Part shown: positions 3,118-40,971 of the stretch, piece after piece
Layout: the number at the start of each line of letters is the position of its first letter
Position numbering within the stretch: position 1 is the first letter of the stretch
Source of the DNA: a bacterium
GTDB lineage: Bacteria > AUK180
Length of the DNA: 64,000 nt
Reading direction: 5' to 3'
Assembly (NCBI GenBank): GCA_023133295.1
Contig: JAGLWT010000037.1
Location: 8,638-72,637 of the forward strand
Program-made: the position numbers and the translations under genes
The notes under the pieces: model-generated
What the model saw: only the letters and a program-made list of their open reading frames with translations
The model's database searches: none
What the model was told of the DNA's origin: nothing

Positions 3118-3260
3118 AATTATATTACTGTTTATGTATGCAGAAAGATTCCGCCTTCAAAAAGTACATATCACTTACACCTGCATTCTCTTCTCATTTA
3201 CTTCCCCTATCCCTAATAATCGCCACAACACAACATCGTAACACCTTTCATTCCTCTTTT

Positions 3261-5827: not shown

Positions 5828-6114
5828 TCCCCGCGAACCAAGTGTTCACGCTACATAAACTCTTCGTTCACATTCTATAAACTTTTTACTGTTTTGTCAA
5901 GTACTTTTCCATATAAGGTTAACAGATGTCTCTTAATCTCTAACATGATTTGTCTGGCCTTTTTTCTTCTTATTCATAATTATCCCCTTCTCTCTTTCCT
6001 TCTTCACTATCTTCATTCTCCTCTGCACTTGTCCCTTGTACCTTGTGCACTTGTCACTTGTGCTCTGCGAAGCGTCATTTTGCAACAAACGCAACAACCG
6101 ACCCCTGTTTTCCC

Positions 6115-8100: not shown

Positions 8101-8700
8101 TCATTTGTGCTTTAGCAGTTCCACAACAACTCTGTGAACTGTGGTTGAAGGATTATTTCCGAACGGATCAAATCTTTCATATTTCTTTAAAAGGTTTGTC
8201 GAGTTTGTGATTGCAATCTTCTGCCTATCGTTCAAAATTTGATACATATTAGGATCATTTTTTTCATATTTCTTTCCTAAATAAATATCTAATTTGCCAG
8301 GATATCGTTTTCTCGAAATTTCCGTATTTAGATATTCAAAATGCAATATATACCAAAGTTCAAATGATTCATTACTATAAACAATGTGAATGTTTTCATT
8401 TTTCGCTAAGGTTATTGCCTGATTTACATTGATCCTATCTGTATTGTCAATATCAAAAACACACCACAACTCGTCATACTTCTCACTATCCTTTTTCTTT
8501 ACGATATGCCTTATCATCCCGCATGGATCAACTGATTTAAATCGAATTTTGACATTGCTTAATCTTTCTATATTCTTCATCCCTTTAAAATAGTTCATTT
8601 CGGTTTCTTTCCCTTGACATACTACTAATATAGTTGGTTTTATTGTTCTCGTTTTAGATATTCTTTGATAATGTTTTCCTAATTTTCTTGTTTTACTCAT
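8101..8700 (-). CDS. RloB-like (Toprim-like) protein, AbiLii-like
   Basis: 199-aa ORF with motifs ILVVCQGKETEMNYF, LWCVFDIDNTD and IVYSNESFELWYILHF. It overlaps the upstream ATPase gene by 4 nt. Confidence 0.8.
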   Translation of the reverse strand: MSKTRKLGKHYQRISKTRTIKPTILVVCQGKETEMNYFKGMKNIERLSNVKIRFKSVDPCGMIRHIVKKKDSEKYDELWCVFDIDNTDRINVNQAITLAKNENIHIVYSNESFELWYILHFEYLNTEISRKRYPGKLDIYLGKKYEKNDPNMYQILNDRQKIAITNSTNLLKKYERFDPFGNNPSTTVHRVVVELLKHK

Positions 8701-9968
8701 TGAGTATTCTTTTTAGTAGGAAATATTTCCTCAATATTCTCTATATCATTCAATATTGGAATCCCTCCAAACTTCCCCAATAAATAATTCTTCTCAATAT
8801 TATAATCATTCCGGATATTAAATTCCTCCAATGAAAATAGCTTGGTCGCCTGATATTTATCTTTTTCAGCAAACCATATTTGATCTCTTCTCAGATTCTT
8901 CTGATTTAATAATGTCCTATCGTGTGCAACAAAAATACATTGCGCGTTTCGATTGTTTGCTTTTGAATTAAAAAGTTTTACTAAATGTGCTAAGAGCAAA
9001 GGATGAAGACTATTATCTAACTCATCAACAACCAATATCTTTCCATTTACCAGAGTATCCAATATTGGCCCTGATAATGAAAAGAATTTTCTTGTTCCTT
9101 CAGATTCTTCAGTATCCATATCTAATTCTACTTGACCAATGTGCTTTCCATCCTCATATTTCTTATGGGAAGTATTGAATTTTACGGCTCTAAGTTTACC
9201 ATCAGGCAATATTTCTACCCTCCGCCTAACGTTTGCCGGTAAAACATTGCCTTCAAGAATTTCTTCCTGAGTTTGCACATCTTCTATGAATAAATCCGCG
9301 GTCTTTAATAATTCGACAACACCTGTTTTCATTTCTCCGCTTTCCAGTAATTTTGATGTATATAATGAGAAATCTCCCATTCCTGAAATAACATTGAAAT
9401 TCTTTATCCATTTCATAATCTTATTGGAAATCACACCATTAAATTGGGCAGCTACAGAAAGAAATAGGGAATTCACTCTTGTTTTATCATCCAAATGCAA
9501 ACCTTCTTTAAATGTATTACCATTCACTTTTATATTTTTTTTCTTTCTATCAAATAGTAAATATTCCTTTTCAGCTCGTGAATAATATAGCCATTCTTTT
9601 GTCACCTCTGTAATAGTTACTTCAAAACCATAACGATAAATTATTTTGTCAATAACAAAGACAATTTCAAAAAATGAAGGTTTATTCTCTGTTTCGGCAG
9701 CCAATTTAAAGTTATTCACATTTAGTCGACTTTCATTTGAACCTAAAGAGGAAGTTGAAATCAGATCTCTAAAAAACTGCATTGCTTTGATTAAATTACT
9801 TTTACCACTCGCATTTGCACCGTATATCGCTGCGCTTTTCAATAATTTAATGTCCTTTAAAGCAGGAAATACATGTTCTTTGTTATCACGATAATTCGAA
9901 GCAACCATACTTAATGTCGCGTTATCCTTGAAAGATAGATAATTCCCTACTGTGAACTGTATTAACAT
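8697..9968 (-). CDS. AAA/ABC-type ATPase, AbiLi-like (OLD-family-type ATPase)
   Basis: 423-aa ORF with Walker A GANASGKSNLIKAM, Walker B ILVVDELDNSLHP and SD GGAG upstream. A paralogue lies at 18467-19726. Confidence 0.8.
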   Translation of the reverse strand: MLIQFTVGNYLSFKDNATLSMVASNYRDNKEHVFPALKDIKLLKSAAIYGANASGKSNLIKAMQFFRDLISTSSLGSNESRLNVNNFKLAAETENKPSFFEIVFVIDKIIYRYGFEVTITEVTKEWLYYSRAEKEYLLFDRKKKNIKVNGNTFKEGLHLDDKTRVNSLFLSVAAQFNGVISNKIMKWIKNFNVISGMGDFSLYTSKLLESGEMKTGVVELLKTADLFIEDVQTQEEILEGNVLPANVRRRVEILPDGKLRAVKFNTSHKKYEDGKHIGQVELDMDTEESEGTRKFFSLSGPILDTLVNGKILVVDELDNSLHPLLLAHLVKLFNSKANNRNAQCIFVAHDRTLLNQKNLRRDQIWFAEKDKYQATKLFSLEEFNIRNDYNIEKNYLLGKFGGIPILNDIENIEEIFPTKKNTQ

Positions 9969-16208: not shown

Positions 16209-16307
16209 ATTTTACTGGATTTGGTATATATTTTCAAATTTAACCAATAACTCAGAGAATTTCAGAGGCATCTTGCAACAATTGCAGCGACCGTCCCCGA
16301 TTCTCCC
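16209..16307 (-). promoter_or_regulatory. G+P promoter module (TTGAAA-17-TAAAAT), archetypal copy
   Basis: -35 is at 16237-16232 and -10 at 16214-16209, 20 nt upstream of the start at 16189. The gene strand reads GGGAGAATCGGGGACGGTCGCTGCAATTGTTGCAAGATGCCTCTGAAATTCTCTGAGTTATTGGTTAAATTTGAAAATAT... Confidence 0.6.
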
Positions 16308-18466: not shown

Positions 18467-19726
18467 ATGTTAATCGAGTTTTCAGTATCTAACTGTTTTT
18501 CCTTTAAAGAAAAAGTTACCTTAAATATGGTTGCTGCGAGTTATAAGGATCTTAATGACCACAAATTTGATATTGGAAATGACATTTGTCTCCTTAAAAG
18601 CATCGCTATTTTTGGAAGTAATGCGAGTGGTAAAAGTAATTTGTTTAAAGCAATGTCTTTCTTCAGAAAATTTGTCATAAAATCTTCCGAGGGAAACAAA
18701 ACGACTGAAATTCCAATTAAGAAGTTTCGATTAGCAAAAGAAACAGTTAATTCCCCTTCTGAATTTGAAATTGTGGTAAATATTGAAGATGTATTCTATC
18801 GATACGGGTTTAAAATTAATAACCACGAAGTGATCGAAGAATGGCTATTGAGTGCCAAGAAGGAAAGAGAAACAAAGTTATTTGTTCGGAAAGATAAAAA
18901 TATTGATATTAAAAGTAAAAATTTTATTGAGGGAAAGGGGCTTGAAGAAAAAACAAGAAATAATTCATTATTTCTTTCAGTAGTTGCCCAATTTAATGGA
19001 GCGATTGCTAACAAACTTATGAATTGGTTCAATAATTTCAACCTAATCTCTGCAAGTAAAGAGGATTTTTCTGTTTACACATCAAGTTTATGCGAGAACG
19101 CTGAATTAAGAAAAGTTGTTGTACAATTCATGAAACAGGCAGATCTCCACATCGACGATATTCAAATTGAACAGGAAGTAGTAGAAGGAAACATCGGCAA
19201 ACATATACGCTCTCATAAATTACTTATGGAAAAGGATGGCTCACTTAAAATGTTAAAACTAAGTACCTTACACAAAGTATATGATAATGGGAAGATTTGT
19301 GGTAATGTCCATTTTGATATGGATACTGAAGAATCTGAAGGCACAAGGAAATTTTTCTCGCTTGTAGGACCAATTATTGACACATTAAGATATGGCAAAA
19401 CTTTGTTCATAGATGAGTTAGATAATAGTCTTCACCCTCTTCTTGTAGTATATCTTATAAAACTATTCAATTCTTCCGTTAACAAGAATAAGGCACAATT
19501 CATTTTTATCTCTCATGATAAAACACTATTTAATCAAGAGTATTTAAGAAGAGATCAGATTTGGATAACTGAAAAAGATAAGTTTCAGGCAACAAAACTA
19601 TTTTCATTGGAGGACTATAATCTCAGAAATGATTTGAAAATTGAAAAAAGTTACCTTGAAGGTCGTTTTGGTGGAATTCCTATTTTAGATAAACCTGAAA
19701 ATATAAAAAAACTTATATTCGGGTAA
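18467..19726 (+). CDS. AAA/ABC-type ATPase, AbiLi-like (second copy)
   Basis: 419-aa ORF with GSNASGKSNLFKAM and TLFIDELDNSLHP. It is collinear with the 8697-9968 product, at roughly half identical residues by eye. Confidence 0.8.
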   Translation: MLIEFSVSNCFSFKEKVTLNMVAASYKDLNDHKFDIGNDICLLKSIAIFGSNASGKSNLFKAMSFFRKFVIKSSEGNKTTEIPIKKFRLAKETVNSPSEFEIVVNIEDVFYRYGFKINNHEVIEEWLLSAKKERETKLFVRKDKNIDIKSKNFIEGKGLEEKTRNNSLFLSVVAQFNGAIANKLMNWFNNFNLISASKEDFSVYTSSLCENAELRKVVVQFMKQADLHIDDIQIEQEVVEGNIGKHIRSHKLLMEKDGSLKMLKLSTLHKVYDNGKICGNVHFDMDTEESEGTRKFFSLVGPIIDTLRYGKTLFIDELDNSLHPLLVVYLIKLFNSSVNKNKAQFIFISHDKTLFNQEYLRRDQIWITEKDKFQATKLFSLEDYNLRNDLKIEKSYLEGRFGGIPILDKPENIKKLIFG

Positions 19727-19729
19727 TGG

Positions 19730-20332
19730 ATGAATAAAAAACATACTCTACCTTACTTAAAAAAACGACCAGAAAGGAATGAAAGACTTAAAATTCTTAT
19801 CGTTACTCAAGGGGAAAAAACTGAATACAATTACTTTAATGATTTGAAAAGAATTGAACGGCTAACCAATGTTAGCGTTTCAATTAAACCAAAACCGAAA
19901 GATCCCAAGAAGATGATTCAAGCTATTTGTAAAATGAATGACATAGATTCTTATGATCGGATATGGTGTGTATTTGATATTGATGAATTTACAGAAAAAA
20001 ACATTGAAAAAGCCATCAGTGAAGCCGGAGAGAAGAAAATTAAAATTGTTTATAGCAATCAATGCTTTGAACTATGGTATCTTTTACATTATCATTTTTT
20101 CAACACTGCCATCTTGAGAAAGCAATATTTTTCTAAACTTAGTAAGCTCCTGGGAAATGAATACGAAAAGAATGCAGAGGATCTTTACGAAAAATTATCT
20201 AGCAAACAGCCAACCGCTATAAAAAACGCTAAGAGATTACTAAGTAAATATGCTTCAGATTCACCATTTAAGAATAATCCTTCCACAACTGTACACATTT
20301 TAGTAGAGGGATTAAAAAAGTATTCACCCTAA
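19730..20332 (+). CDS. RloB-like protein, AbiLii-like (second copy)
   Basis: 200-aa ORF with ILIVTQGEKTEYNYF, IWCVFDIDEF and IVYSNQCFELWYLLHY. Confidence 0.8.
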   Translation: MNKKHTLPYLKKRPERNERLKILIVTQGEKTEYNYFNDLKRIERLTNVSVSIKPKPKDPKKMIQAICKMNDIDSYDRIWCVFDIDEFTEKNIEKAISEAGEKKIKIVYSNQCFELWYLLHYHFFNTAILRKQYFSKLSKLLGNEYEKNAEDLYEKLSSKQPTAIKNAKRLLSKYASDSPFKNNPSTTVHILVEGLKKYSP

Positions 20333-20444
20333 TTCTGCTTAGGACTATGGTATATTGTTATTTTCCCCACACCTCATTAATTCGATCTATGATTTTTTGT
20401 TTAGGATTATTGCATAACATCGTAACAGCTTTCATTCTTGCTTC

Positions 20445-20473
20445 ATTATATAGTTATTTCAGAATTTCAACAA
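20445..20473 (-). promoter_or_regulatory. Orphan P2 promoter module (TTGTTG-17-TATAAT) pointing into the 3' end of the plus-strand RloB gene
   Basis: Same module as at 27700-27728 and 3261-3289. No minus-strand ORF follows it. Confidence 0.35.
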
Positions 20474-20525
20474 ATTCTGCATGGTATATTTCCATTCTTA
20501 TTCAAAATCCTCCCTGTTATCGTTC

Positions 20526-20619
20526 TACTACTTTGCAAAAACATTTTCAAATTGACTTAATAACTTGGAGAATTTTAAAAGGCATTTTGCAACAAATGCA
20601 ACTACCGCCCCCAAGTTCC
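20526..20619 (-). repeat. G+P module copy (-10 TAGAAC)
   Basis: ctactactttgcaaaaacattttcaaattgacttaataacttggagaattttaaaaggcattttgcaacaaatgcaactaccgcccccaagtt. Confidence 0.7.
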
Positions 20620-20633
20620 TTTGACAGTAATAG

Positions 20634-20915
20634 CTAGTCTTTCACAGGTACTAAATCGCTTTCCCAAGCCTCGAATACCTCCTCTTCCGGTTTGTTATTA
20701 CAGTCATAACACATTGGAAGTATATATTCCTTTCCCCCTTCACCTACTTTTATGACATGCCCTCCAACATCTGGAGATCCATCACATCCTTTAACTTCAC
20801 AAGTTGTAGCTTTCTTCCCTTTCTTCTTTTCCCAAAAATCCAACCAGCTTGTATACCCATCTGGTGGTTTTTTCCCTGCTGTTCCTTTTTTGTTCTTAAC
20901 TTCAATAAAACTCAT
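20634..20915 (-). CDS. Small Cys-rich (zinc-binding, HNH-like?) protein
   Basis: 93-aa ORF with C-x4-C...GGHV...C-x2-C spacing (TTCEVKGCDG...GGHVIKV...PMCYDCNN). Confidence 0.45.
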   Translation of the reverse strand: MSFIEVKNKKGTAGKKPPDGYTSWLDFWEKKKGKKATTCEVKGCDGSPDVGGHVIKVGEGGKEYILPMCYDCNNKPEEEVFEAWESDLVPVKD

Positions 20916-20924
20916 TTTTACCTC

Positions 20925-21065
20925 CTATCCTACTTTGACAAATTTTGTATTATTGCATATTGAGCATGGTGGAAGAGTATCTGTTCTATCATCCAAAACG
21001 ACAATTTTTCCGCATTTGGTACATTTGTACCTACCTTTCCCTGGCTTTTCACCTGTTGTTGGCAT
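20925..21065 (-). CDS. Zinc-ribbon mini-protein (46 aa), not in the ORF track
   Basis: My translation: MPTTGEKPGKGRYKCTKCGKIVVLDDRTDTLPPCSICNNTKFVKVG*. It has two CxxC pairs and 9-nt gaps to both neighbouring genes. Confidence 0.45.
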   Translation of the reverse strand: MPTTGEKPGKGRYKCTKCGKIVVLDDRTDTLPPCSICNNTKFVKVG

Positions 21066-21074
21066 AATTATCTC

Positions 21075-21440
21075 CTATATTAATGGCAATGATCTAGGAG
21101 TTGTTGAGTCAGATATCAAGTGCGTAGCATATCCCGCACCCAATCCATACAATGCCATTTTTATGCTTTCATTTTTAATATTACTAATTTTCAAACTCAT
21201 GCCTCCCAATGCACCAGAACAAGTAAGACTGTGAAAAAATTTTCTATGGTGCGGGTTTTTGGCTGGTTCGAGGATATCGGGTAATGCACTTCCAATGTAA
21301 GCAGTTACAATAAATAGCAACGCATTTCCAAAATCTTTTAGTGCGACATCTTCATCATTGATTAATTTGTTACCAATATATACCGCAGCACCTCCAAAAC
21401 CAGCGATTAATCCTAGTTGTAAGTGTTCTCTTCTATTCAT
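21075..21440 (-). CDS. YdjM/DUF457-type membrane-bound metal-dependent hydrolase
   Basis: 121-aa ORF with SALPDILEPAKNPHHRKFFHS and ATHLISDSTTPRSLPL. Confidence 0.65.
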   Translation of the reverse strand: MNRREHLQLGLIAGFGGAAVYIGNKLINDEDVALKDFGNALLFIVTAYIGSALPDILEPAKNPHHRKFFHSLTCSGALGGMSLKISNIKNESIKMALYGLGAGYATHLISDSTTPRSLPLI

Positions 21441-21455
21441 TGTTCCTTTTCAGAC

Positions 21456-21713
21456 TTACCCCTTATCATTTATATTATACTTGGGATTCTTACCTTTATG
21501 AGTTTGACGATATGTCGTTAAAGATTTTTCCTCCCACTGTTTTGCAGAGCCTCGAGTAACTTTAGATCCTACCTTGTTAACTGAAGAAAACTTCTTTCCA
21601 CCTGCTTCGTGCTCATTGACTCGTCTTTCAAGATCGTTAGTTATACCTCTATAGACTACTTTCCTTCCTTGCCTTAATTCATACTTTTCATAATCTCGCT
21701 TTTTATTAGCCAT
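21456..21713 (-). CDS. Minimal GIY-YIG-like protein
   Basis: 85-aa ORF with YELRQGRKVVYRGITNDLERRVNEHE. Confidence 0.5.
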   Translation of the reverse strand: MANKKRDYEKYELRQGRKVVYRGITNDLERRVNEHEAGGKKFSSVNKVGSKVTRGSAKQWEEKSLTTYRQTHKGKNPKYNINDKG

Positions 21714-22107
21714 TTTTCTTACCTCTGTGTTTATAATAACTTTCTATTCTGGCTCTATCCTCATTTTCCTGATCGCCTTTGAAATAGATCTGAATAAATT
21801 CGATTTTGTTCGCTTCTTTATAATATGCGTATATAACTCTAATACCGCTACTTGAGCCTCTTCCCTTCAATGATCTGCACGCAAATTTCCGTGCCTTATA
21901 TATTACAGGCGTGACAATTCCCAATCCTGAGATCTTTACAATCCCCCCATTATCCATATGATCATTGTGGAATAGTTTCAATTGCGTTTCTATGAATGTT
22001 TTAAAATCACTCGGGAGTGTTTTCTGCTTTCGTTTAAGTTTATTGAATTCTTTCGTAAATTCCGGTAGTTCCTTTACTTCATCAAATGTGTTCATCGTCG
22101 GAATCAT
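21706..22107 (-). CDS. RelE/ParE-superfamily-like toxin
   Basis: 133-aa ORF with ...KARKFACRSLKGRGSSSGIRVIYAYYKEANKIEFIQIYFKGDQEN. It overlaps the upstream antitoxin gene. Confidence 0.55.
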   Translation of the reverse strand: MIPTMNTFDEVKELPEFTKEFNKLKRKQKTLPSDFKTFIETQLKLFHNDHMDNGGIVKISGLGIVTPVIYKARKFACRSLKGRGSSSGIRVIYAYYKEANKIEFIQIYFKGDQENEDRARIESYYKHRGKKNG

Positions 22108-22906
22108 CTCTCACTGAAAATTCAGGTGTTCTATAAAACACTTTTTCATATTCAATAACTTCCTCATCTTCAGTAGTCAACCACGGTACATCTCTGTGTG
22201 ATATTTCTGAAAGTTGTTTTGCATTCATATCTGAATACTTGTCAAGCACTTCGTCAATAAGCTTAATTTCGTGAGCCATTAATTTTCTCAAGTTAGGTTT
22301 GCGTAAAGCAAGATACTTTTTCTGATTATATTTAGCATATTTAGATGGCAATTTGACTATCTCTTTTTGCTCTTCCATCATATCAACTATTTTCTTAAAC
22401 TCAATAGGCGTGGGTCCATATTTATTTTTCTGATAAATAGCTCCTATTAGTTGTTCCTCATATTTCTCGAAAAAGTTAAAATCTGCAAAATACAACAGTT
22501 TATATATTACTGTCTGCCCAACATTTTCTTTTGAGCCTACTTGATTCAAGATATATAACAGGACCTCTTTGAATTTGGCGACATTTTGAATTGGAATTTC
22601 TCGAATTTCCGGTTCATTCGATTTTTGATGCTTTTCTTCTTTTTGGAGAATGACTTGCGTTTCCCTAGCGAGATCAAGAATAATGTCAGTCGAAGTAAAG
22701 AATATTTCAGATAGCATCCTAAGTTCATTTGCGCAAACTTTACGCTTTCCCATCTCTAGTTGAGCCAGAGCCGAACGGCTTATATTAATTCTCTTTGCTA
22801 GCTCTTCTTGCGACATATCGTTCTCCTCACGCATCATTTTTATTTTCCGACCAAGGCTCTTATAGAATTTCTCCACTCTATCCTCCACTCTGGTGCAGTA
22901 TAACAT
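22082..22906 (-). CDS. XRE-HTH plus Panacea/SocA (DUF4065) domain antitoxin
   Basis: 274-aa ORF. The HTH is MSQEELAKRINISRSALAQLEMGKRK. The Panacea-like segment is YKLLYFADFNFFEKYEEQLIGAIYQKNKYGPTP. Confidence 0.7.
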   Translation of the reverse strand: MLYCTRVEDRVEKFYKSLGRKIKMMREENDMSQEELAKRINISRSALAQLEMGKRKVCANELRMLSEIFFTSTDIILDLARETQVILQKEEKHQKSNEPEIREIPIQNVAKFKEVLLYILNQVGSKENVGQTVIYKLLYFADFNFFEKYEEQLIGAIYQKNKYGPTPIEFKKIVDMMEEQKEIVKLPSKYAKYNQKKYLALRKPNLRKLMAHEIKLIDEVLDKYSDMNAKQLSEISHRDVPWLTTEDEEVIEYEKVFYRTPEFSVRDDSDDEHI

Positions 22907-23157
22907 ATGTTCGATAATAAATCAAGTAGTTGTTCTAATTTCCAACAACCGCTTTATTTAGTAAGTATTTGATAATCAAATCTATCGATTCTAAACGACT
23001 ACAGATATGTGGATTCTGGGATGATTGGAAGACTCAATCCGCTCTTCACCAAGTGAAAGAAGTGAAACACCGTCCCCCATCTCCAAAAAAAACTTGACAT
23101 TGGAAATAATAAAATGATAAAACGCTATATATGAAAAGGCATAAAATAGAAATAAGG

Positions 23158-23271
23158 AAAGGACAGATTGATATACAGGAATTATTGGGACATAAAATGG
23201 AGACAACAATGATTTATACACATGTGATTAATCAAGGAGGAAAAGGGGTAAGGAGCCCTGCAGATTTTTAG
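23158..23271 (+). pseudogene. intI: Integron-integrase-type tyrosine recombinase, C-terminal ~35 codons only
   Basis: Translation: [36 protein letters not shown]. This is the catalytic-Tyr box (LLGH...TTMIYTHV) plus the GG.GVRSP tail typical of IntI. Upstream sequence is unrelated repeat-module DNA. Confidence 0.65.
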
Positions 23272-23299
23272 TATATGTTGCTCAAGCGAGCAACATATA
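23272..23299. other. Perfect 12-bp stem hairpin immediately after the intI remnant stop
   Basis: tatatgttgctc-aagc-gagcaacatata. No U-tract follows, so a terminator role is uncertain. Confidence 0.5.
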
Positions 23300-23460
23300 C
23301 AAACTAAGAAAGAAGGAGGAAATATGTGTAATATAACTAATAATAAACAATTAAACAAAATAAGCGATATGAGTGTAGGTAGTCGGAAAGAGCAACATTT
23401 GCTATTTTCATTAGTACACCTAATCTTATGTTCGACGAAAATGATGATTAGAGGATAATT

Positions 23461-23886
23461 ATGAATATCTTTGTAAAAATACTGTCTCGGTTCAAGCCTT
23501 CTATCAGAATAGGCAGTGATGGGACTCCTGTCTTTTCCATTGACTTCCAAGAATCTCTCACTGCTGTCAAGGTCGACGAAAGAATTGCCAATCTGTCTAA
23601 GGTACATCACGACCTCCTTGAAGCTGCCCAAGCGACAGAGCAGCTTCATCAGGAGGCTATTGCAACAAAAGAAGATCTCTCCACTCTGAGAGATAGAGTC
23701 GAGCGCCTAAATAAAGACAAGAAAACATCTGAAACTGTATTGAGTCTTGACCAGGAGTCCCTCGCACGGCTGTTGGCTGATGCGAACAAACTACTAAAAG
23801 GAAGAAGCGTACTCGTTGGTATCCTCATTGGTCTTATAACGGGATTCCTCTCTAGTTGGGCAGTCTGGTATTTGACTTCTCAGTGA
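23461..23886 (+). CDS. Integron cassette ORF: coiled-coil protein with a C-terminal TM helix, function unknown
   Basis: 141-aa ORF, visibly more GC-rich than its surroundings, followed 4 nt later by a canonical attC. Confidence 0.55.
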   Translation: MNIFVKILSRFKPSIRIGSDGTPVFSIDFQESLTAVKVDERIANLSKVHHDLLEAAQATEQLHQEAIATKEDLSTLRDRVERLNKDKKTSETVLSLDQESLARLLADANKLLKGRSVLVGILIGLITGFLSSWAVWYLTSQ

Positions 23887-23889
23887 AAC

Positions 23890-23962
23890 ATCTAACAATG
23901 GCATTCACTCGGACGGCCATTCCGCTACGCTTCATGTCCGCCTGTGATGCCAAGCGTTAGGC
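23890..23962 (+). other. attC recombination site (73 nt)
   Basis: R'' is ATCTAAC (23890-23896) and R' is GTTAGGC (23956-23962). L'' AATGGCATTCAC pairs with L' GTGATGCCAAGC, leaving one unpaired T. There is a central CGGAC...GTCCG stem. Confidence 0.7.
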
Positions 23963-24354
23963 TTCGAGATCAAGATATAAATGTGAATGATTTTTAACCT
24001 GATAAAATATCATGGAAATCCGGGGACGATTGTCCCATACCATGCAAGTAGCTACGGGATAAATTGCATTTGTTGCATTTTTAGTGTTCAAATCTCAAAT
24101 ACCTCCATTCTCAACCGTTTTATTATATCACACATTGAATTGAAATCAAATCCAATTTTCTTGGCTGATCGAAATGTTCTCTCCCCACACCTTATGCCCT
24201 ATGCATAGTTATTTATTGAAAGGAAACAATCAATTTTGAAACTTCTGCAACGTCCCAATTTTCCCCAAGTGACAGAAGTGAAACACCGTCCCAGATTTTC
24301 TCCCAGTCAAACAGTCAAACGACTGTCGTACTATGGAAATGCCCTTTCTGAATT

Positions 24355-24396
24355 CTCAATTTAGGTAAAAAGTAAAGATCCGATACCATATCCCTA
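24355..24396 (+). repeat. Module T copy, 3 nt beyond the stop of the KAP NTPase gene
   Basis: ctcaatttaggtaaaaagtaaagatccgataccatatccctat. Confidence 0.8.
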
Positions 24397-24398
24397 TT

Positions 24399-27300
24399 CT
24401 ATCCTTTTGCTTGATTTTCGTCACTTTTCGCTTTTTTCCTTCTATATTTGAATTTATAGGTCTTCTCAAGGAAGTTTTGAAGATCTTTCCTTCTTACATT
24501 GTCATTAATCAATTTAGGTAATTCTTTTAGTCTAATCCTCTGTCTTTGACCAAAATATTTCTTTTGAATACTGTCCAAAATCGCTTGTACGCTTTTAATA
24601 TATGTACCATCATTAATACTTATTAACCCTTCCAATGCTGATAATAACAATCCATTAATTTCAGGCTCGAATAGCGACTGATATTCTAGAAAGGCATCCG
24701 TTGTTTCAACATAAAGAATAATTTCTCTAGCTGGCTTAGTGAAAACTTCCTGTATTTTAATATTGATTTTTGTCTTGAATAGTGCCTCTCCCAATATATT
24801 TTGAATAAAGGATAATGCCTTTCCACCTGCCTTTCTTAAATAGATATTTGAGTGAGTCGACAAATTAAAAATATAATCTGCTACAACTGTTTCGTCACCG
24901 AAGAGTTTAGATTTTTTAGATAGAAGTCCTAGGAAATGATTGACTTTTTGAGGCTCTGTTTGACTGATGCTATTCACAATGCTGTATACCTTGCTCTTAT
25001 ACCAATTATACATTTGTTCATTGTCAATTAAATCATTAAGGATCAATTCAAGTTCCATAATCTTGTTGAAACTCAGATTGATACTAGCATTAATAATTGC
25101 TTGTTTTTGTTGGTCTGAAAACGGAAAGTGATTTGTTATTAATGTATCGATCTTGTGAGTAAATGTATCGTTGTTAATATTCGCAATAAACCTGTTCACT
25201 GTATATTTGACCATAGAACTATTCAATCGATCCCACCAACTATCTTCCTTTATTTTTTGCATATTTAGTATAAATCTAATGCTCTCTTCAAAAGTTTCAT
25301 TTGAACTAAGAGAAATTAAGTTTCCCGAATCATCATATCGCCTATCATTATCACTAGAATAGTAGCACGCTATGAGAAAGGGAATAATAATTATATTTCT
25401 ATCAATTTCCTTAAATTTATTATAAATTTTCTGGAGGTTCTCAGAGATATTAGAAAATTCCTTGTGAGAATTGAAAGAAAAGGCTCCTATCAATGTAAAA
25501 TAATTATTAATATTTTCATTTGGTTCAGTATTCTGTTTAGCTGACCAGTATTGAAATGCTAATGCCATTTGAGAAATAACGGCTTGCTCAATGCTATCAT
25601 CCCAATATTTTTTCATAACAATCACCCTCTTTCTAAAATTCTTCATAGGAGTGCTGTCTGTCTTTAAATATTCTTTTATACATCTTACAATCATATCCTG
25701 ATCAAATATCCTGTGTTTGCTCTCAATCCACTTTTCATTGGCATTAATTTCTGTTCCAACGAGAACATCCATTAACCATTCATTGTCATCAATAAGCACC
25801 AAAGTTTCATCAATTCTAGTAGCTACGCTTTTTCTAAAATGCATAGCATGATTAGAATAAAATAAAGATAGAAATTCTGCGATAGTCTCGGGAAAGATAT
25901 CGGGCGTAATAAGAGAAATGCCCTTATTAAGATACTCCTCTAGAAAGTTTTGGTTTTCTGAATTTTCGGCTAAACTAATAATATCTTTTATCATAAACTC
26001 GAATATTTTATCGCTCTCCAATATACTACTAACAATTAGTTTTGAATACATTTTCTTAAGACTATAATCAGATACTTGTTCTTTGTATACGTATATTGCT
26101 GATTGTAATAAATTCAGAAGCAAAGTTCCTACAGGTTTTTTATAAAACTGGTCTTGAAATACATTTAGGATACTTCGCAGAATCGGTATGTTTTTTATAT
26201 CCAGCAACTTAAGCACTTCAATTGAATATGATCTGATTGCTTCTAATAAATTAGTATAATCAGGAATCATCAGGGCATATTTGGGATATTTTTGGAAGAT
26301 GAGAGAATTCAAGTCTTTGACATTAATAGTTCTAGTTTCCCAAAGGAACTTGTTGAAACTCCTTTCAGTCTTCGTAAATTTTCCACCCAGAAATCCCTTT
26401 GATTTAATCGCTCTAGCTTGATAGTTTTCCATAATCGTATGCTCATCTATGATTTCTTGATAGAATGTTGGAAAAACGAATTCAATTACTTTAAGTTTAG
26501 CAATTTCATCAACGATTTCAAAAGGATCATGAGCAAAAACCTGTTGCTCTTCCCTTTCCGTCAACATAAATAATGTCGTTTTAATGTTATTCAAATAGTG
26601 TTTGAGTTTTCTGGGAGTGTCAAACCCTCCATAGTAGGCGATATTCATTACTTCTTCTGGTAATCCTATTTTTGTAGATATTTCCCTTCCGTAGTCAATT
26701 AAATCCGAATTTGTTATTACATTCATTCTAAGAAATACATCAAAGAATTTTGTCAATTCTTGAATATTATCATATTTACCGGAACGCTCTTTACTTAGGA
26801 TATCTGCTACTGCGTGACCATCCATAGTAATAATGAAAAAACATCTTTTATATGTTTCAAGATCAGAGTCATTTGAAGCAAGGAATGTCTTAATCGAATC
26901 CAGAACATTCAATATCATTTCATGAGAACACCTATCTATATCGTCAATGACAAAGATATATTTCTCACTGTCGCTTCCCGTATCTTCAATAATACGAATA
27001 AATTCCTCCTCAAAGTGTTCAGGTAAGATAATCTGAGGATCTACTTTCAGCTCAAATAACTTTGGGAATATTTTTCCTATGAGAGTGTTTAATACAAAAC
27101 TACCAGATAATAATGGAAGAAAGGATAACATTAACGCCCAGAAAGACTTATTTATAAAACCGTAAATCATAAAACCAGGTATTAAAGCAATGCAAACAGC
27201 AATAAAAACAACAGCGATAAATGCCACTAACGATTTAGTACTTGATTTAATGGTTTCAAAGCTATCTGTTAGGTGGAACTCCTTTTCTAATTCCCTGATG

Positions 27301-27683
27301 AATCTTAGATTGAGTTGTTTTGTATATTGTTCTCTCTTCTTTCCTTTTAAGATATCGTTCGCAGCTTGAATCAAGAATTGTCTACGAAAACAATCATCAG
27401 CATATTTCCATGCATTGAAATATGATAATGTAAATTGCCTACCAAAACTATCTTCTTGCTTAGCGTATTGTTTAAACTTGTTAATAACAGAAGATTTCCC
27501 ACTTCCCCACGGACCCAATAATCCAATCACGAACGGAGCATTATTGGAATTGTCTAAAATTATGGATTTTAAAGTACTTGCGATAGCTTCATGATCAAAT
27601 GGATCCGTTTCATTATCTGCCCCGTGAAAAGCCGGGACATCTTTAAGTAAGTTTAAATCAAAACCATTTTTCTTCTTTGACAT
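24399..27683 (-). CDS. KAP-family P-loop NTPase
   Basis: 1094-aa ORF with Walker A GLLGPWGSGKSSVINKF, two or more TM helices inserted after the P-loop (VAFIAVVFIAVCIALIPGFMIYGF...) and Walker B IFVIDDIDRC. Confidence 0.8.
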   Translation of the reverse strand: MSKKKNGFDLNLLKDVPAFHGADNETDPFDHEAIASTLKSIILDNSNNAPFVIGLLGPWGSGKSSVINKFKQYAKQEDSFGRQFTLSYFNAWKYADDCFRRQFLIQAANDILKGKKREQYTKQLNLRFIRELEKEFHLTDSFETIKSSTKSLVAFIAVVFIAVCIALIPGFMIYGFINKSFWALMLSFLPLLSGSFVLNTLIGKIFPKLFELKVDPQIILPEHFEEEFIRIIEDTGSDSEKYIFVIDDIDRCSHEMILNVLDSIKTFLASNDSDLETYKRCFFIITMDGHAVADILSKERSGKYDNIQELTKFFDVFLRMNVITNSDLIDYGREISTKIGLPEEVMNIAYYGGFDTPRKLKHYLNNIKTTLFMLTEREEQQVFAHDPFEIVDEIAKLKVIEFVFPTFYQEIIDEHTIMENYQARAIKSKGFLGGKFTKTERSFNKFLWETRTINVKDLNSLIFQKYPKYALMIPDYTNLLEAIRSYSIEVLKLLDIKNIPILRSILNVFQDQFYKKPVGTLLLNLLQSAIYVYKEQVSDYSLKKMYSKLIVSSILESDKIFEFMIKDIISLAENSENQNFLEEYLNKGISLITPDIFPETIAEFLSLFYSNHAMHFRKSVATRIDETLVLIDDNEWLMDVLVGTEINANEKWIESKHRIFDQDMIVRCIKEYLKTDSTPMKNFRKRVIVMKKYWDDSIEQAVISQMALAFQYWSAKQNTEPNENINNYFTLIGAFSFNSHKEFSNISENLQKIYNKFKEIDRNIIIIPFLIACYYSSDNDRRYDDSGNLISLSSNETFEESIRFILNMQKIKEDSWWDRLNSSMVKYTVNRFIANINNDTFTHKIDTLITNHFPFSDQQKQAIINASINLSFNKIMELELILNDLIDNEQMYNWYKSKVYSIVNSISQTEPQKVNHFLGLLSKKSKLFGDETVVADYIFNLSTHSNIYLRKAGGKALSFIQNILGEALFKTKINIKIQEVFTKPAREIILYVETTDAFLEYQSLFEPEINGLLLSALEGLISINDGTYIKSVQAILDSIQKKYFGQRQRIRLKELPKLINDNVRRKDLQNFLEKTYKFKYRRKKAKSDENQAKG

Positions 27684-27699
27684 CTTTCATTCTTGCTTC

Positions 27700-27728
27700 A
27701 TTATATAGTTATTTCAGAATTTCTACAA
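27700..27728 (-). promoter_or_regulatory. Promoter module P2 (TTGTAG-17-TATAAT)
   Basis: -35 is at 27728-27723 and -10 at 27705-27700, only 17 nt upstream of the KAP ATG at 27683. Confidence 0.55.
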
Positions 27729-27989
27729 ATTCTGCATAGTATATATCCATTCTTTTTCTAAATCACCCTTATTATCGTTCTACTGCTTTGCAAATATATT
27801 TTCAACTAATTGGACTTTGGACCTGAGAGACTGGGACACTGGGCTACTGGATCACTGGGCTACTTACTACCGTTGTACTGTTGAAATGCCCTCTCAGAAT
27901 TCTCAATTTAGGTAAAAAGGAAAGACACGGTACCCTATCGGCACCCTATTCTCCGATTCGCGCTCATTGTTAAAACAAAATGCACTGGA

Positions 27990-29000
27990 TCAGCTTTTAT
28001 CCTCATTTTCGTTCTCATTTGGATCAGCTCCACTATCATCTATATTATCTAAATCATTTACATCTTCCAATGGTTCTTTTTCAGTAATACTCTCTGATTC
28101 ATCCTGAGGTAGTTCAGATTCTTCTTTTTGTTCAGCTGTCTCTTCAATTACCTCTTCAGGGACTTTCTCCGCTTCAGCGCCTTCTGTTTGGTCAGCTTTC
28201 TCTTCAATTACCTCTTCAGGGACTTTCTCCGCTTCAGCGCCTTCTGTTTGGTCAGCTGTCTCTTCAAATACCACTTCAGGGGCTTTCTCCGCTTCAGCGC
28301 CTTCTGTTTGGTCAGCTGTCTCTTCAATTACCTCTTCAGGGACTTTCTCCGTTTCAGCTCCTTCTGTTTGGTCAGGAATCTTTCTAGTTTCCTTCTCTTT
28401 ACTTCTTGTCGTCAAGAATTGAAATATTAAACATATGATAAATGAAACTACAAATACATAATGAATGAAATGTATCGAATACATAAGGGCCGCTGCTCCA
28501 TCTTCCAGAATGGACATAAAGAGCCAATCCAAATTGAAAAGGAAATTCCCGATACTCCCGGAAGATATTGCAGAAATCGCTAATGTCAGACAAAATGATC
28601 CTACGATAGAGGTATTACATATTGTTGCAATCCTACCCCCTTTGGCACCCCAGATGGAAAGACCTATAATCCCGGCAATACTTAATAATATAAGCATGGC
28701 ATTGGCAGTTGCAAGTTCCATTTCAGGATTGATATGTATCATAATAAGAGTAATACTGGTTGCTAAGAATCCTCCGGCGACCATACCAATAACTATCCGG
28801 GTTATCTTATGAAGAAGAAAGCTTAGTCCGACTCCGATTACTATGAAGATCAAAACTATAATTGTTCCTTGCTCACTATTATGAAACAAAGCAGCTCCCA
28901 GGAACATGAATACAAATCCCCAGATCAAGGCATTAGTAAGCTTGAATACTTTATGTCCAAAAAGTCCAAGCATGACACCAAGGAATAGTAAATAAATCAT
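27990..29000 (-). CDS. Polytopic membrane protein with an acidic 20-aa tandem-repeat C-terminal tail
   Basis: 336-aa ORF with about 7 hydrophobic helices, then 4 repeats of ADQTEGAEAEKVPEEVIEET. Confidence 0.6.
   Translation of the reverse strand: MIYLLFLGVMLGLFGHKVFKLTNALIWGFVFMFLGAALFHNSEQGTIIVLIFIVIGVGLSFLLHKITRIVIGMVAGGFLATSITLIMIHINPEMELATANAMLILLSIAGIIGLSIWGAKGGRIATICNTSIVGSFCLTLAISAISSGSIGNFLFNLDWLFMSILEDGAAALMYSIHFIHYVFVVSFIICLIFQFLTTRSKEKETRKIPDQTEGAETEKVPEEVIEETADQTEGAEAEKAPEVVFEETADQTEGAEAEKVPEEVIEEKADQTEGAEAEKVPEEVIEETAEQKEESELPQDESESITEKEPLEDVNDLDNIDDSGADPNENENEDKS
28131..28374. repeat. Four tandem 60-bp repeats (coding)
   Basis: Sequence lines 28141, 28201, 28261 and 28321 are near-identical with an exact 60-nt period. 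Confidence 0.9.
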
Positions 29001-30806: not shown

Positions 30807-30905
30807 ATATTACTTGATTTAAGAAATATTTTCAAATTAAACTAAGAACTCTGAGAATTTCAGCGTCATTTTGCAACTTTCGCAATTACCGGCCCCGAAT
30901 TGGCT
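30807..30905 (-). promoter_or_regulatory. G+P promoter module (TTGAAA-17-TAATAT)
   Basis: -35 is at 30835-30830 and -10 at 30812-30807, 51 nt upstream of the start at 30756. Confidence 0.55.
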
Positions 30906-32481: not shown

Positions 32482-32575
32482 ATTTTACTTGATTTGCAAT
32501 AAATTTTCAAATTGAACTAAAAACCTCGTGAATTTCAGAGGCATTTTACAACAAGTTCCTGAGTTCTCCTCGGCA
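32482..32575 (-). promoter_or_regulatory. G+P promoter module (TTGAAA-17-TAAAAT)
   Basis: -35 is at 32510-32505 and -10 at 32487-32482, 19 nt upstream of the start at 32463. Confidence 0.55.
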
Positions 32576-32587
32576 AACTGCCGAGAA

Positions 32588-33217
32588 TTATTCTATTAAC
32601 TTAAGCGTATTTACTCTATCCTCACAACTAGTACACAACATGCAATGGTGACTTCCAATTGAATTACATGAAAATGTCTTTTTGTAAGGAATATCCTTCG
32701 TTGTAATATTAGCAATTACTTCTTCCCTATCTTTCTCCATAAATGGTGCTATTATTTTAAATTTTCTATCTCCCTTGTTCAATAATTTCTCAATAGCGCT
32801 AACATATTCTTTCTTTGTATCGTAATATGACTCTTTTCCAATAACCCCAATGGCTATTTCATATATATCTTTTCTATAACCATAGTTAGAGGCTAAAGTT
32901 AGCAATAAGAGGTTTCTATTTGGAAAGCATTCTTTCTGGTACCATTCACTTCTAATATAATCTTTCTCAGGAAACTCTCCTATTAGAGTACCACTACCTA
33001 TAGTTCCCATATTTTTAATATTTAATTCGTATAACCGGTCTTTGAATTTTTTATCTAGAATATTATGTATAGCTTTCTGTTCTCCCTCATATGATTTTTG
33101 TCCATAGTTTATGAAAAGGTGGTATATATCATAATTTTTCTTTAATAACCAATAATGCAGTATCGTAGAATCAATACCCCCAGAATATAGAAGGATAGCT
33201 TTTTTATTGATCACCAA
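32588..33217 (-). CDS. QueC-like PP-loop ATPase (7-cyano-7-deazaguanine-synthase family)
   Basis: 209-aa ORF with PP-loop ILLYSGGIDST, then INYGQ, FPNRNLLLLTLAS and a C-terminal C-x7-C-x2-C-x2-C zinc motif (FSCNSIGSHHCMLCTSCEDR). Confidence 0.75.
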   Translation of the reverse strand: MVINKKAILLYSGGIDSTILHYWLLKKNYDIYHLFINYGQKSYEGEQKAIHNILDKKFKDRLYELNIKNMGTIGSGTLIGEFPEKDYIRSEWYQKECFPNRNLLLLTLASNYGYRKDIYEIAIGVIGKESYYDTKKEYVSAIEKLLNKGDRKFKIIAPFMEKDREEVIANITTKDIPYKKTFSCNSIGSHHCMLCTSCEDRVNTLKLIE

Positions 33218-34481
33218 TTTCCTTTACTAACTCTTCTAAGGAATTTACTATTGAATCACAACCATGCTCTATCATATTGTTAAGTTTTACACTATTTGTC
33301 TTCAAACCAATAACTGATATACCTTTGGATTTTGCATACCCTATTTCAAAAAACGTACCAGGATCATAGACATCCACAACAGCAACAACACAATCTGCAC
33401 AGCATATTTTTTCTATGTCTTGTTTTACAATAGCTTCTTTTTCAGTTTTATCCATCCCTTCATTGATAGGGCCAATGTCTCTTACTGGAGAAATTACTTT
33501 ATAACCAGAAGCTTCTAGAACATTACATACTTTTGTTATCCAATCATACTCAGATTCAGAAAAAAACGGGCCAGCTAAATAAATAGTTTTCTCTATATGT
33601 AGATATTTTTTTCTTTCTTCCATCTCTTTTATTACTTTGTCTTCAGAAATAATATTTTCAATATTTTTTTGCTCGATAAAATTAGCGGCTACACAGGAAG
33701 CGATTTCCGCACTCTTAAAAACATTAATTCCCTTACAATAATTTGCAACTAAAGCTCCGTCATAAACATCCCCTGAGCCTAATGTGCAAAACACTTGAGA
33801 TTCGTATGAGCTTATCTTTTCCTCTTTCGTTGTATCGCATACTATACTACCTTTAATGCCTTGTTTAAGAATAATTATTTCAACATTTTTTTCTTTCAAA
33901 ATTCTAAATGCCCGTTCGGTTTCTACTTGTTCAGTAAGAAGATATAATTCCTCTTCATTAATAAGGAGTATTTTTATTTTATAATCCGTTATTATTTTTT
34001 TTGCCTGTGCAATTGAAAATTCATTCGGTTTTGGATCTAAAATTACTGGAATATTATTTTTATTTGCTTGTTTTATTGTTTTATTTGGAAAAGAATGGTC
34101 GATTGGGAAAATTACAAGTGCATCATATTTTTTGTTAAGCTTAGGTTCATAATCTATACCAATCCTACTAGTATTTGTTGGAATGCTATCTTTTTTTCCA
34201 TATTTACTATATCCGGTTACTAAATAATTTGGTAATAAGTATTTTTCGTCCATTTTTGCTTTGCTAAAATCTATTCCCATTCCACGCCATACCGACAAAC
34301 TATATTCATCTACCTTTGGGGCATATACAGTAAAAAAATCTACTTTAGCACCTTGTTTCGCTGCACTAATTGCAGAATATAACCCTGCTCCCCCCATTCT
34401 CCAAACAATTTTGTTATCATCAATTAACCAATCGGTTGCTATTTCTCCATATATTGCAAGTTCTATTTTCTCACTTTGCAT
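33204..34481 (-). CDS. Fusion protein: PfkB-family (ribokinase-like) kinase plus nucleoside 2-deoxyribosyltransferase-like domain
   Basis: 425-aa ORF. N-terminal motifs are GGAGLYSAISAAKQGAKV and GSGDVYDGALVA. C-terminal motifs are IYLAGPFFSESEYDW...CADCVVAVVDVYDPGTFFEIGYAKSKG. Confidence 0.7.
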   Translation of the reverse strand: MQSEKIELAIYGEIATDWLIDDNKIVWRMGGAGLYSAISAAKQGAKVDFFTVYAPKVDEYSLSVWRGMGIDFSKAKMDEKYLLPNYLVTGYSKYGKKDSIPTNTSRIGIDYEPKLNKKYDALVIFPIDHSFPNKTIKQANKNNIPVILDPKPNEFSIAQAKKIITDYKIKILLINEEELYLLTEQVETERAFRILKEKNVEIIILKQGIKGSIVCDTTKEEKISSYESQVFCTLGSGDVYDGALVANYCKGINVFKSAEIASCVAANFIEQKNIENIISEDKVIKEMEERKKYLHIEKTIYLAGPFFSESEYDWITKVCNVLEASGYKVISPVRDIGPINEGMDKTEKEAIVKQDIEKICCADCVVAVVDVYDPGTFFEIGYAKSKGISVIGLKTNSVKLNNMIEHGCDSIVNSLEELVKEIGDQ

Positions 34482-35606: not shown

Positions 35607-35938
35607 AAGTCCTCCTTATCAATTATTCAACTATGTTTATTATAACACAAAAATAAGATTATTTCTATTTTTTTTTACCTACATATCATTTCAAAACAAA
35701 AATTAATCTTAACAGTTCGCTACGCTCACAGCTACGCCGTTCACTCCGCTATTATATTCCCTTTCGAACCCCACAAAATACCTACCCGCAACCATTCATC
35801 CACAAAGCGGCTTCCCCCTACTCTCCTACCCAAAAGAATCCATCACGCATTAACGTGATACGTGAATCCTTGTCCCTGGGTCAATGGGTTACAGGGACAC
35901 TTACTATCGTTGTCCTGTGGAAATGCCTTCTCAGGGTT

Positions 35939-35975
35939 CTCAGTTTAGGCAATAAGTAAAACCACGGTACCCTAT
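35939..35975 (+). repeat. Module T copy (divergent), 36 nt beyond the stop of the 36011-38113 gene
   Basis: ctcagtttaggcaataagtaaaaccacggtaccctat. Confidence 0.7.
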
Positions 35976-40970: not shown

Positions 40971-40971
40971 T

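Follow-up and report, generated by a model that had tools for sequence, protein, structure and literature searches.

A probable decayed chromosomal integron retaining an integrase stump, a putative attI site and one gene cassette in a cold-seep bacterium

What remains of an integron once most of its integrase gene is gone, and how much of such a remainder can still be read? This question is raised by positions 23,158 to 23,962 of a 64,000-nt stretch of bacterial DNA (contig JAGLWT010000037.1 of assembly GCA_023133295.1), hereafter the window, whose numbering is used throughout. The initial annotation of the window, a model's reading of its letters and open reading frames (ORFs), had proposed an integron relic composed of the 3' end of an integrase gene (intI), a hairpin and a single gene cassette. 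Our analysis arrives at the same view and adds the attI site, which had not been recognized before: with high probability, the locus is a decayed chromosomal integron, in which an intI stump, an intact attI and one cassette with a canonical attC all share the same orientation. Its component parts are the following.

23169..23271, + strand: intI 3' remnant, the last ~33 codons, with Box II, the catalytic Tyr codon (23215-23217), the IntI tail and the stop codon TAG (23269-23271)
23271..23300, + strand: hairpin, with a perfect 13-bp stem (23271-23283 / 23288-23300) and a 4-nt loop, overlapping the intI stop codon
23313..23458, + strand: Shine-Dalgarno (SD) site AAGGAGG (23313-23319) and leader ORF, with ATG at 23324, 44 codons and stop codon TAA at 23456-23458
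23373..23432, + strand: putative attI, ...TAGGTAGTC...AGCAACATTTGCTATTTTCATTAGTACACCTAATCTTATG|TT, with the predicted crossover G23430|T23431
23431..23956, + strand: gene cassette, 526 bp, starting with the TT of the attI junction and ending with the G in the R' core of attC
23461..23886, + strand: cassette ORF, 141 aa, with a predicted N-terminal beta-hairpin, long coiled-coil helix and C-terminal transmembrane (TM) helix (GILIGLITGFLSSWAVWYL)
23890..23962, + strand (top strand): attC, 73 nt, with R'' ATCTAAC (23890-23896), L'' TGGCAT[T]CAC (23899-23908), a central stem, L' GTGATGCCA (23944-23952) and R' GTTAGGC (23956-23962)

The identity of the integrase remnant is decided by its last codons. 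Read within the ORF 23131-23271 (+), it scores 39.2 bits (E 5e-10) on the NCBIfam model TIGR02249 ("integron integrase"), covering profile positions 281-313 of 315, whereas the same piece reaches 18-20.5 bits on Xer models (XerC 20.5 bits, E 2.5e-4; XerD, E 1.2e-3; XerA is matched as well). Box II with the catalytic Tyr is followed by a tail of the form GG.GV.SP.D, and the best match among solved structures is VchIntIA (IntI4; 2a3v; E 1.2e-4), which can be aligned through the post-Tyr tail THVLDRGASGVLSP up to residue 317 of 320, while XerC-like and XerD structures yield E values of 0.05-0.26 and alignments that stop at the Tyr. The closest database proteins are intI fragments having a tail identical to that of the remnant; for a 46-aa query, a word-indexed protein search listed only proteins of at most 80 aa. 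The remnant is therefore best assigned, as far as its sequence can tell, to an integron integrase gene of the IntI type. This bears out the catalytic-tyrosine box and the IntI tail of the initial annotation, and with the IntI model ~19 bits above any Xer model, the better fit to Xer or phage integrases that could have overturned it did not appear.

The remainder of intI is missing. Both tblastn and DNA alignment with the loci of relatives place the onset of IntI homology at ~23169-23173, such that the 3' end originally given to the remnant stands, but its start at 23161 does not. Approximately 860 nt of the 5' part, ~90% of the gene, are absent from the locus. The remnant has also lost 9 nt in frame after 23176, between two ATAC repeats (GATATAC[GAACAATAC]AGGAA), as compared with intact relatives and the frameshifted locus L005, and another 3 nt in frame near 23197, which turn KNVE into KME (the DNA alignment was made with L005, L001 and L004). 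As ~860 nt of the gene are gone and two further deletions have occurred within a 103-nt remnant, the locus is without a recombinase of its own. No further intI pieces were found in the 64-kb window: tblastn with 11 full-length IntIs matches only 23173-23268 (E 1e-9 to 3e-11), and the weak matches at 53576-53686 (-) and 58442-58495 (+), both with E > 0.08, were discarded, their translations being nothing recombinase-like. We also considered a retained intI 5' end at 23131-23168 (ATGAAAAGGCATAAAATAG...GGACAGATT), which resembles by eye the first codons fused to the 3' end, as occurs in L121. This candidate was rejected; an nhmmer profile of the intI promoter plus the first ~50 codons, built from 26 family loci, gives no match at 23131-23168 at E <= 100, nor does it detect such a retained 5' piece in the window. 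The initial annotation had everything 5' of the remnant replaced by repeat modules. The 5' part of intI is indeed absent, but the 91 nt directly upstream (23078-23168) are unique AT-rich DNA. The repeats may nonetheless have caused the loss of the 5' part.

Downstream of the remnant, the locus retains what appears to be an undamaged attachment site. The ~260 nt from the remnant to 23432 are collinear with several loci from other genomes (L005, a metagenome-assembled genome labelled archaeal, L001/L003 and L004), all of which share the order intI 3' end, stop codon, hairpin, ATATACAA, SD site, ATG and ...TTTTCATTAGTACACCTAATCTTATGTT. This collinearity ends right after the GTT at 23430-23432, and the sequences are unrelated beyond it. 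Similarly, in four unrelated metagenomes from sediment and groundwater, contigs match 23173-23282 and 23370-23432 with deep coverage and diverge past 23432. When public metagenome contigs were scanned for the pattern CATNAGTACANCTNATNTTATGTT, at least 120 stretches with the site were recovered. Among the matches listed, the ~35-36 nt located 5' of the search pattern are 70-99% conserved per column, and the 30 nt after the GTT differ in nearly every locus, mostly beginning with AGGC, AGCC, ATGC or AGAC. Given the constant left side, the break at G|TT and the different cassette in each locus, the site behaves as an attI. Both the collinearity and the divergence of the contigs identify G|TT as the insertion point next to intI, and the crossover, placed from sequence, would lie between G23430 and T23431. 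The window junction reads GTTCGAC and the cassette accordingly starts with TTCGAC; a C at this position is also present in ~8 of the ~120 listed family loci. This platform attI is found ~160 nt after the intI stop codon. Counting genome and metagenome assemblies together, more than 120 loci match these 160 nt position by position as far as the GTT.

A canonical attC closes the cassette. A script searching for RYYYAAC ... GTTRRRY with a paired bottom strand returned 23890-23962 as the sole convincing site, and its DNA folds better as the bottom strand (-16 kcal/mol, z -2.9) than as the top strand (-12.1 kcal/mol). Two covariance models, both built without the site of the window, were then available for comparison. 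The seed of the first (R1) consists of 36 candidate attCs adjoining intI in ~20 phylogenetically scattered assemblies, taken from 80 genome loci with relatives of the integrase C-terminus, and it excludes the attC of L041, the one most like that of the window. In the R1 alignment, 92% of the cells in the R''/R' and L''/L' helices are paired vs 22-42% in slid controls, and compensatory changes are present in 6 of the 15 pairs, including 4 of the 8 L-box pairs. Run over the whole 64 kb with filters off, R1 yields a single match at E <= 10, namely 23890-23962 (+), at full length, with 32.9 bits and E 7.7e-6; genuine attCs outside the R1 seed score 25-48 bits. For the second model (R2), 36 attCs were taken from loci of the attI family to which this locus belongs; the site scores 40.2 bits (E 5.7e-8) on it, the runner-up in the window having 9.6 bits. 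The 73-nt site with its R'' and R' cores, L boxes and bulged T, as first described, is consequently scored by two newly built attC models, and both of them, with filters off, likewise agree with the earlier statement that the 64-kb window contains no second attC. No Rfam family reaches its gathering score in the window, and no match there is of attC type.

The site also carries the finer marks of an attC. Its extrahelical base belongs to the 5' arm as read on the + strand (TGGCAT[T]CAC / GTGATGCCA), that is, on the '' arm, as in the arrays of relatives, whereas in L049, a locus of classic layout, the extra base is in the opposite arm and the model matches the other strand. Because the extra base occupies the same arm as in the relatives, it is the + strand that serves as top strand, and ORF and attC stand in the proper order of a cassette; the models match the + strand only. 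The extrahelical base is an A on the bottom strand of the window attC, as opposed to the G of the aadA attC. A further relative is the attC of L122, a locus with the same attI, which is 85.5% identical to that of the window over 69 nt. Judging from these features, the attC is canonical; as a folded single strand it would be a substrate of IntI.

With the crossover at 23430|23431, the cassette starts at 23431 rather than at the start of its ORF, and the locus contains one cassette complete with its attC. The cassette looks foreign by its GC content, which is 45% overall, 44.8% in the ORF and 55% in the attC, compared to 32-36% in the flanks; the ORF at 23461-23886 had rightly been called GC-richer. 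Its protein was at first taken for an orphan, since a word-indexed search returned the query alone. This was overturned by an exhaustive HMMER search over 1.8 billion representatives, which found 81 clusters at E <= 1e-3, 48 of them at <= 1e-10, with 30-61% identity and equal length. Word-indexed searches by themselves are unsafe for "orphan" calls on small coiled-coil proteins. The homologue alignment comprises the coiled-coil region and a conserved C-terminal TM helix, G..IGL.TG..SS..VW..T, and the AlphaFold (AF2) model made with this alignment, at a mean pLDDT of 88, consists of a beta-hairpin and two helices, the first of 60 residues and the second containing the membrane anchor. Pfam, NCBIfam and PHROG return coiled-coil noise only for the protein, and Foldseek finds nothing below E 1 in the PDB. 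Going by the model, we would call the product a small tail-anchored membrane protein of an unnamed family. The family occurs as a cassette elsewhere too: the gene of homologue P0129 (50% identical; locus L208) is followed 8 nt past its stop codon by an attC of 43.3 bits. L208 was the sole positive, as the other four of the five loci read lack a detectable attC after the homologue gene.

How might such a cassette still be expressed? The leader ORF starts in the platform, spans the crossover 23430/23431 and stops 2 nt before the cassette ATG at 23461. The form typical of the family is 36 codons long (M..NN.KQLT.N.Q.RLGSHEEQ.LLFSLVHLILC), with the TAG of the cassette core GT-TAG as its stop codon. 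A 36-codon leader with an SD site is found in 47 of the 111 listed family loci, and 69 have at least 31 codons; the leader lacks its ATG or is shortened in 39. As the cassette of the window is without this TAG, the leader extends for 8 codons to a TAA. The arrangement has the structure of ORF-11 of attI1, i.e. an SD site and ATG in the platform attI, an ORF running over the crossover and termination within the cassette, as a rule at the TAG formed by positions 3-5 of its GTTRRRY. It is also reminiscent of ORF-18 of attI1, in that a cassette without the TAG lets the ORF continue into the cassette 5' untranslated region (44 codons in the window). Unlike ORF-11, the leader of this family has 36 codons instead of 11, and there is no sequence similarity to attI1. 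Both ORF-11 and ORF-18 of attI1 boost translation of the first cassette by coupling (PMC8876359), and by analogy, the leader described here may be translated and coupled to the first cassette. Its conservation has no three-base periodicity and increases steadily toward the crossover, from which it follows that the constraint is chiefly on the DNA site, the attI.

The hairpin noted earlier downstream of the remnant is real as well, with a fold of -19.6 kcal/mol (z = -9.4). Its core, GTTGC...GCAAC, is kept across the family in alignments with both the close loci and ~100 loci, and GAGCAACAT is found again at 23390-23398, inside the attI. No U tract is present 3' of the hairpin, and it is therefore not a typical intrinsic terminator. 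We speculate that it could be an integrase-binding repeat or an RNA element. For the cassette promoter Pc, a consensus scan of 23078-23324 returned no convincing sigma-70 site, and site counts there were at shuffle level.

When examining the layout of related loci, it is evident that the window conforms to its clade. Remnant and cassette are co-oriented on the + strand, as the initial annotation had stated; the "inverted integrase" form, which it called the less common one, is normal here. Among the 80 loci with relatives of this IntI, 157 of the 162 attCs detected by model share the strand of intI and, with few exceptions, follow it downstream, so that the "inverted" layout is the rule for this IntI clade. 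The exceptions are all four matches of L049, which has the classic divergent layout, and one weaker opposite-strand match each in L036, L058 and L063; a minus-strand match in L059 is a plus-strand site scored a second time, and more weakly, on its other strand. Where the strand of the attI was recorded, the attCs of attI-family loci are on the attI strand, and all but one, in L093, are downstream of the attI. In the literature, the IntIs of Spirochaetota have been described in "reverse orientation" and archaeal attIs directly downstream of intI (PMC9668308). The locus shares with such reverse or inverted-integrase integrons (Treponema/Spirochaetota and the archaeal ones with attI downstream of intI) the placement of intI, attI, ORF and attC on one strand, the crossover at G|TT and an attC with R''/L''/L'/R' boxes plus an extrahelical base, its attI lying ~160 nt past the intI stop. 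It differs from them in having an integrase of 33 codons and a single cassette. The specific attI sequence of the window is ...CATTAGTACACCTAATCTTATGTT, and the likeness to the archaeal integrons concerns the position of the attI.

Loss of the integrase is likewise widespread among the relatives. Among the closest loci, L005 has a frameshifted intI, L004 the last ~126 codons of the gene and L001-L003 the last ~70. The intI state was counted in those listed metagenome loci whose attI is preceded by at least 1.3 kb: the gene is full and in a single frame in ~8, full-length but frameshifted in ~7 and 5'-truncated in ~20, and at least 24 have no match at the protein level, which leaves an intact single-frame intI in ~1/7. 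In several of the loci without a match, the interior of intI is deleted, and its promoter region and first ~15 codons persist beside the hairpin and attI (e.g. L121). These loci were found via an intact attI pattern, making decayed attIs invisible, some are redundant, and metagenome assembly is biased. Integrase-less platforms are frequent in this family; this by itself does not make them favoured. The breakpoint in the window, 261 nt from the crossover, is the same as in L137/L146 and L200 and near that of the L090 group. A breakpoint hot spot was considered and is not supported, as breakpoints range over 27-911 nt and many of the loci are mutually related.

Several additional observations were made in these relatives. 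L004 contains a second intI C-terminal relic (5826-5966), and some family loci have a pair of attI copies on the same strand, separated by 0.9-5.8 kb; double-relic or double-attI loci include L145 (6427-6450, 12236-12259), L176 and contig 18 of run X12, which points to platforms lying in tandem or nested in one another. In L093, an attC-like site (3162-3245, -; 26.5 bits) lies ~900 nt upstream of the attI crossover, where intI homology ends (IntI residue ~68), as if intI had been cut by recombination involving an attC. The motif CGTTATCGGTAAGATTTTGGAG, ~30-50 nt upstream of the intI ATG, is conserved in intact members and kept where the intI interior is deleted (loci read: L097, L117, L160, L194, L165, L108 and L121); it is a candidate for a promoter/operator shared by intI and the co-oriented cassettes. 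A marine-sediment metatranscriptome holds related intI-3'/attI contigs, a faint hint that platforms of this family are transcribed.

Based upon these features, a history of the locus can be proposed. An IntI of this family would once have recombined the folded bottom strand of the attC with attI, thereby placing the cassette in the first position. After loss of the integrase, the piece would now be frozen, although the cassette gene may still be expressible, possibly via translational coupling, given that the leader ends so close to its ATG. For want of an integrase, the locus does not count as a complete integron, and with a single attC in 64 kb it does not qualify as a CALIN (cluster of attC sites lacking an integron integrase) either; a CALIN is defined by at least two attCs without a nearby intI, and IntegronFinder would by default drop a single-attC locus (PMC4889954). 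Rather, it is akin to the pseudo-integrons of Nemergut et al. (2008) and to the intI pseudogenes beside CALINs of Cury et al. (2016), in which the integrase was lost and cassettes were kept. Most described intI pseudogenes carry frameshifts or stops, whereas here ~90% of the gene is deleted. Approximately 1/3 of intI genes are pseudogenes (PMC2426708), and an intI pseudogene lies no more than 10 kb away from 15 of 279 CALINs (PMC4889954). Integron decay of this sort is an ordinary fate, and the locus belongs to an established kind.

Four points weigh against the interpretation as a decayed integron: 1) the remnant amounts to just ~33 codons, with 39 bits vs the TIGR02249 cut-off of 265 that an integrase of functional length in a complete integron would have to reach, and the IntI-specific additional domain (near patch III) lies outside the remaining piece, 2) the junction GTTCGAC deviates from GTTRRRY at one position, 3) the seeds of both attC models were picked by the same RYYYAAC...GTTRRRY rule that found the site of the window, making their support partly dependent on the cores, and 4) the frozen state is deduced from an intI search of the 64-kb window, with the remaining genome outside it. 

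Among the alternatives, a possible, if doubtful, scenario is that stump, attI and cassette arrived already truncated as one fragment and were built into the island via recombination between host repeats. The piece is indeed bracketed by a pair of direct repeats, 1216 nt apart, more copies of which occur at 13997, 43845 (-) and 46426 (-).

23045..23076, + strand: host dispersed repeat, left copy, TTCACCAAGTGAAAGAAGTGAAACACCGTCCC, 32 nt
24261..24292, + strand: host dispersed repeat, right copy, 94% identical to the left copy

Moreover, the genes of the island form a mosaic in which 5' and 3' modules recur as flanks, and the family often has truncated platforms preceded by unrelated DNA. Speaking against such an arrival, neither a target duplication nor element ends can be defined; the 11-12-nt pairs that might pass for terminal inverted repeats (23103-23124 / 24116-24135) were rejected as being at chance level in AT-rich DNA. 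The GC content of the remnant and attI (30-36%) fits family and host alike and does not discriminate. Between the attC and the right repeat copy lies an inverted and interrupted copy of another host repeat (24016-24085; GGAAATCCGGGGACG...TTGCATTTGTTGCATTTT), recognized by eye, and no relatives of 23957-24400 were found in any fetched locus.

It is less probable still, and in our view unlikely, that the locus is a live substrate served in trans, with its attI and attC used by an intact IntI of the same family elsewhere in the genome and cassettes still moving. Both sites fit the family consensus and models without visible damage, more integrons with the same attI are present in the same sample and study, and half of the integrase-less cassette clusters studied by others sit in genomes with an IntI elsewhere (PMC4889954). 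Further contigs of the source run have the attI alone in common with the window (3-6 differences in ~56 nt) and then diverge; they are other integrons of the family in the community. Against this idea stand the single cassette, the absence of intI elsewhere in the 64-kb window, and the source sample itself, in which the locus exists as one contig form at even depth and no near-identical attI is joined to another cassette, bearing in mind that Logan contigs drop rare variants.

An assembly chimera, in which an integron fragment of another organism was joined to the scaffold, is highly improbable. The source is a cold-seep metagenome and the attI is multi-copy in the sample (depth 242 vs 33.6), hence prone to misjoins, but a 7275-nt Logan contig identical to window 20439-27713 spans both flanks at the depth of the flanks (even at 33.6 in the source run) with no variants, and a 146-kb ENA scaffold holds the same order; the two assemblies derive from the same reads and are partly independent. 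Finally, that the locus is no integron at all, merely a generic Xer or phage recombinase remnant beside an unrelated palindromic repeat or terminator, has next to no probability: the short remnant does match Xer models weakly (E 2.5e-4 to 1e-3) and the window is full of repeats, but the IntI model wins by the margin given above and alone aligns the tail, the 260 nt from remnant to GTT are collinear with loci in which attC arrays accompany a full-length IntI, and the 73-nt site occurs once in the window, bears no relation to the host repeats and is matched by attC models on one strand only.

Returning to the decayed integron, a separate matter is whether what remains has been kept for a reason. 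We put forward, tentatively and with considerable doubt, that selection may have kept the region between the intI stop and attI, with its hairpin, SD site, 36-codon leader and crossover, after loss of the integrase; it would offer a docking site to an IntI supplied in trans or else a ready head for first-cassette expression and translational coupling. In its favour, intI is truncated, frameshifted, internally deleted or absent in most of the ~120 listed loci, even as the ~35 nt 5' of the search pattern are 70-99% conserved; the double attI copies and the internal deletions retaining both the intI promoter end and attI point in the same direction. If the pattern reflects selection and not sampling, it would bear on the origin of integrase-less cassette clusters and on first-cassette expression outside clinical class 1 integrons, and the stump would be an instance of a recurrent functional integrase-less platform, not debris.

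On the reading of the locus as a decayed integron, it would be a fossil with exact boundaries in the repeat-rich defence and toxin-antitoxin island of a cold-seep bacterium, indicating that this genome once acquired genes by means of an integron. The locus also opens a large integron family of low-GC sediment and groundwater organisms, with a sharp attI, an ORF-11-like leader and many integrase-less members, for which no name was found as far as we checked. Tools requiring two attCs or at least 50% of the integrase profile would overlook such loci.

Host DNA adjoins the locus on either side. Its upstream neighbour is a divergent HTH-XRE/SocA-Panacea antitoxin operon (22082-22906), and downstream lies a gene for a 1094-aa KAP NTPase with a QatA-like N-terminus (24399-27683). 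Segments rich in defence or toxin-antitoxin genes include these two as well as 8697-9968, 18467-20332, 32588-34481, 38185-43725, 49030-49944 and 60239-61399. The defence-type genes of the window encode two AAA_21 ATPases (one with RloB), HTH-XRE/SocA-Panacea, the KAP NTPase, QueC beside a fusion of PfkB and nucleoside 2-deoxyribosyltransferase, a type I restriction-modification system (HsdM/S/R), AbiEii and Fic.

From 3400 to 36000, minus-strand genes are bracketed by recurring modules, all copies of which are on one strand. A module of ~100 nt just past stop codons occurs in 6 copies and ends in ...TCTCAATTTAGGTAAAAAGTAAAGA.ACG.TACCCTAT (e.g. 24354-24378, 27901-27925 and 35938-35962), and another of ~90 nt just before start codons occurs in 7 copies, TTACTTGATTT...TATTTTCAAATT.AACTAATAACT..GAGAATTTCAG (e.g. 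16229-16252, 30827-30850 and 32502-32525). This bracketing of genes is a cassette-like arrangement from which attC features are absent. The 9-mer ACCGTCCCC is present in 22 copies (1036-60033) vs 0.05 expected, each with a variable 5-7-mer ahead of it, repeated once in direct orientation (TTGCAAC....GCAAC, TGCCAACTATGCCAAC, AGTGAAAGAAGTGAAA, TTCAACACTTTCAAC). All of its copies up to 29 kb are on the + strand and all from 43.8 kb on the - strand, and this switch lies near a change in cumulative GC skew at ~44-47 kb.

Intergenic tandem heptamer arrays are found at 47650-48200, 49930-50010, 53350-53395, 59120-59580 and 62540-62635, with heptamers of the types AGTGAAT/AGTGAAC/AATGAAG, ATTGTCC/ATTGTCA and CAAGTGC. 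Arrays of this kind are typical of filamentous cyanobacteria and large sulfur bacteria. Within the ORF 56168-57682 (-; 504 aa, no Pfam match), positions 56750-57440 consist of 9- and 15-nt periodic repeats in 42 overlapping copies with extreme AT/GC skew. The host looks bacterial, with SD sites and an outer-membrane protein (OMP) beta-barrel domain in the window. Lastly, the ORF 27990-29000 (-), a gene with a TM7S3/TM198-like domain, contains five tandem 60-nt repeats (28053-28412) that are 77-92% identical.

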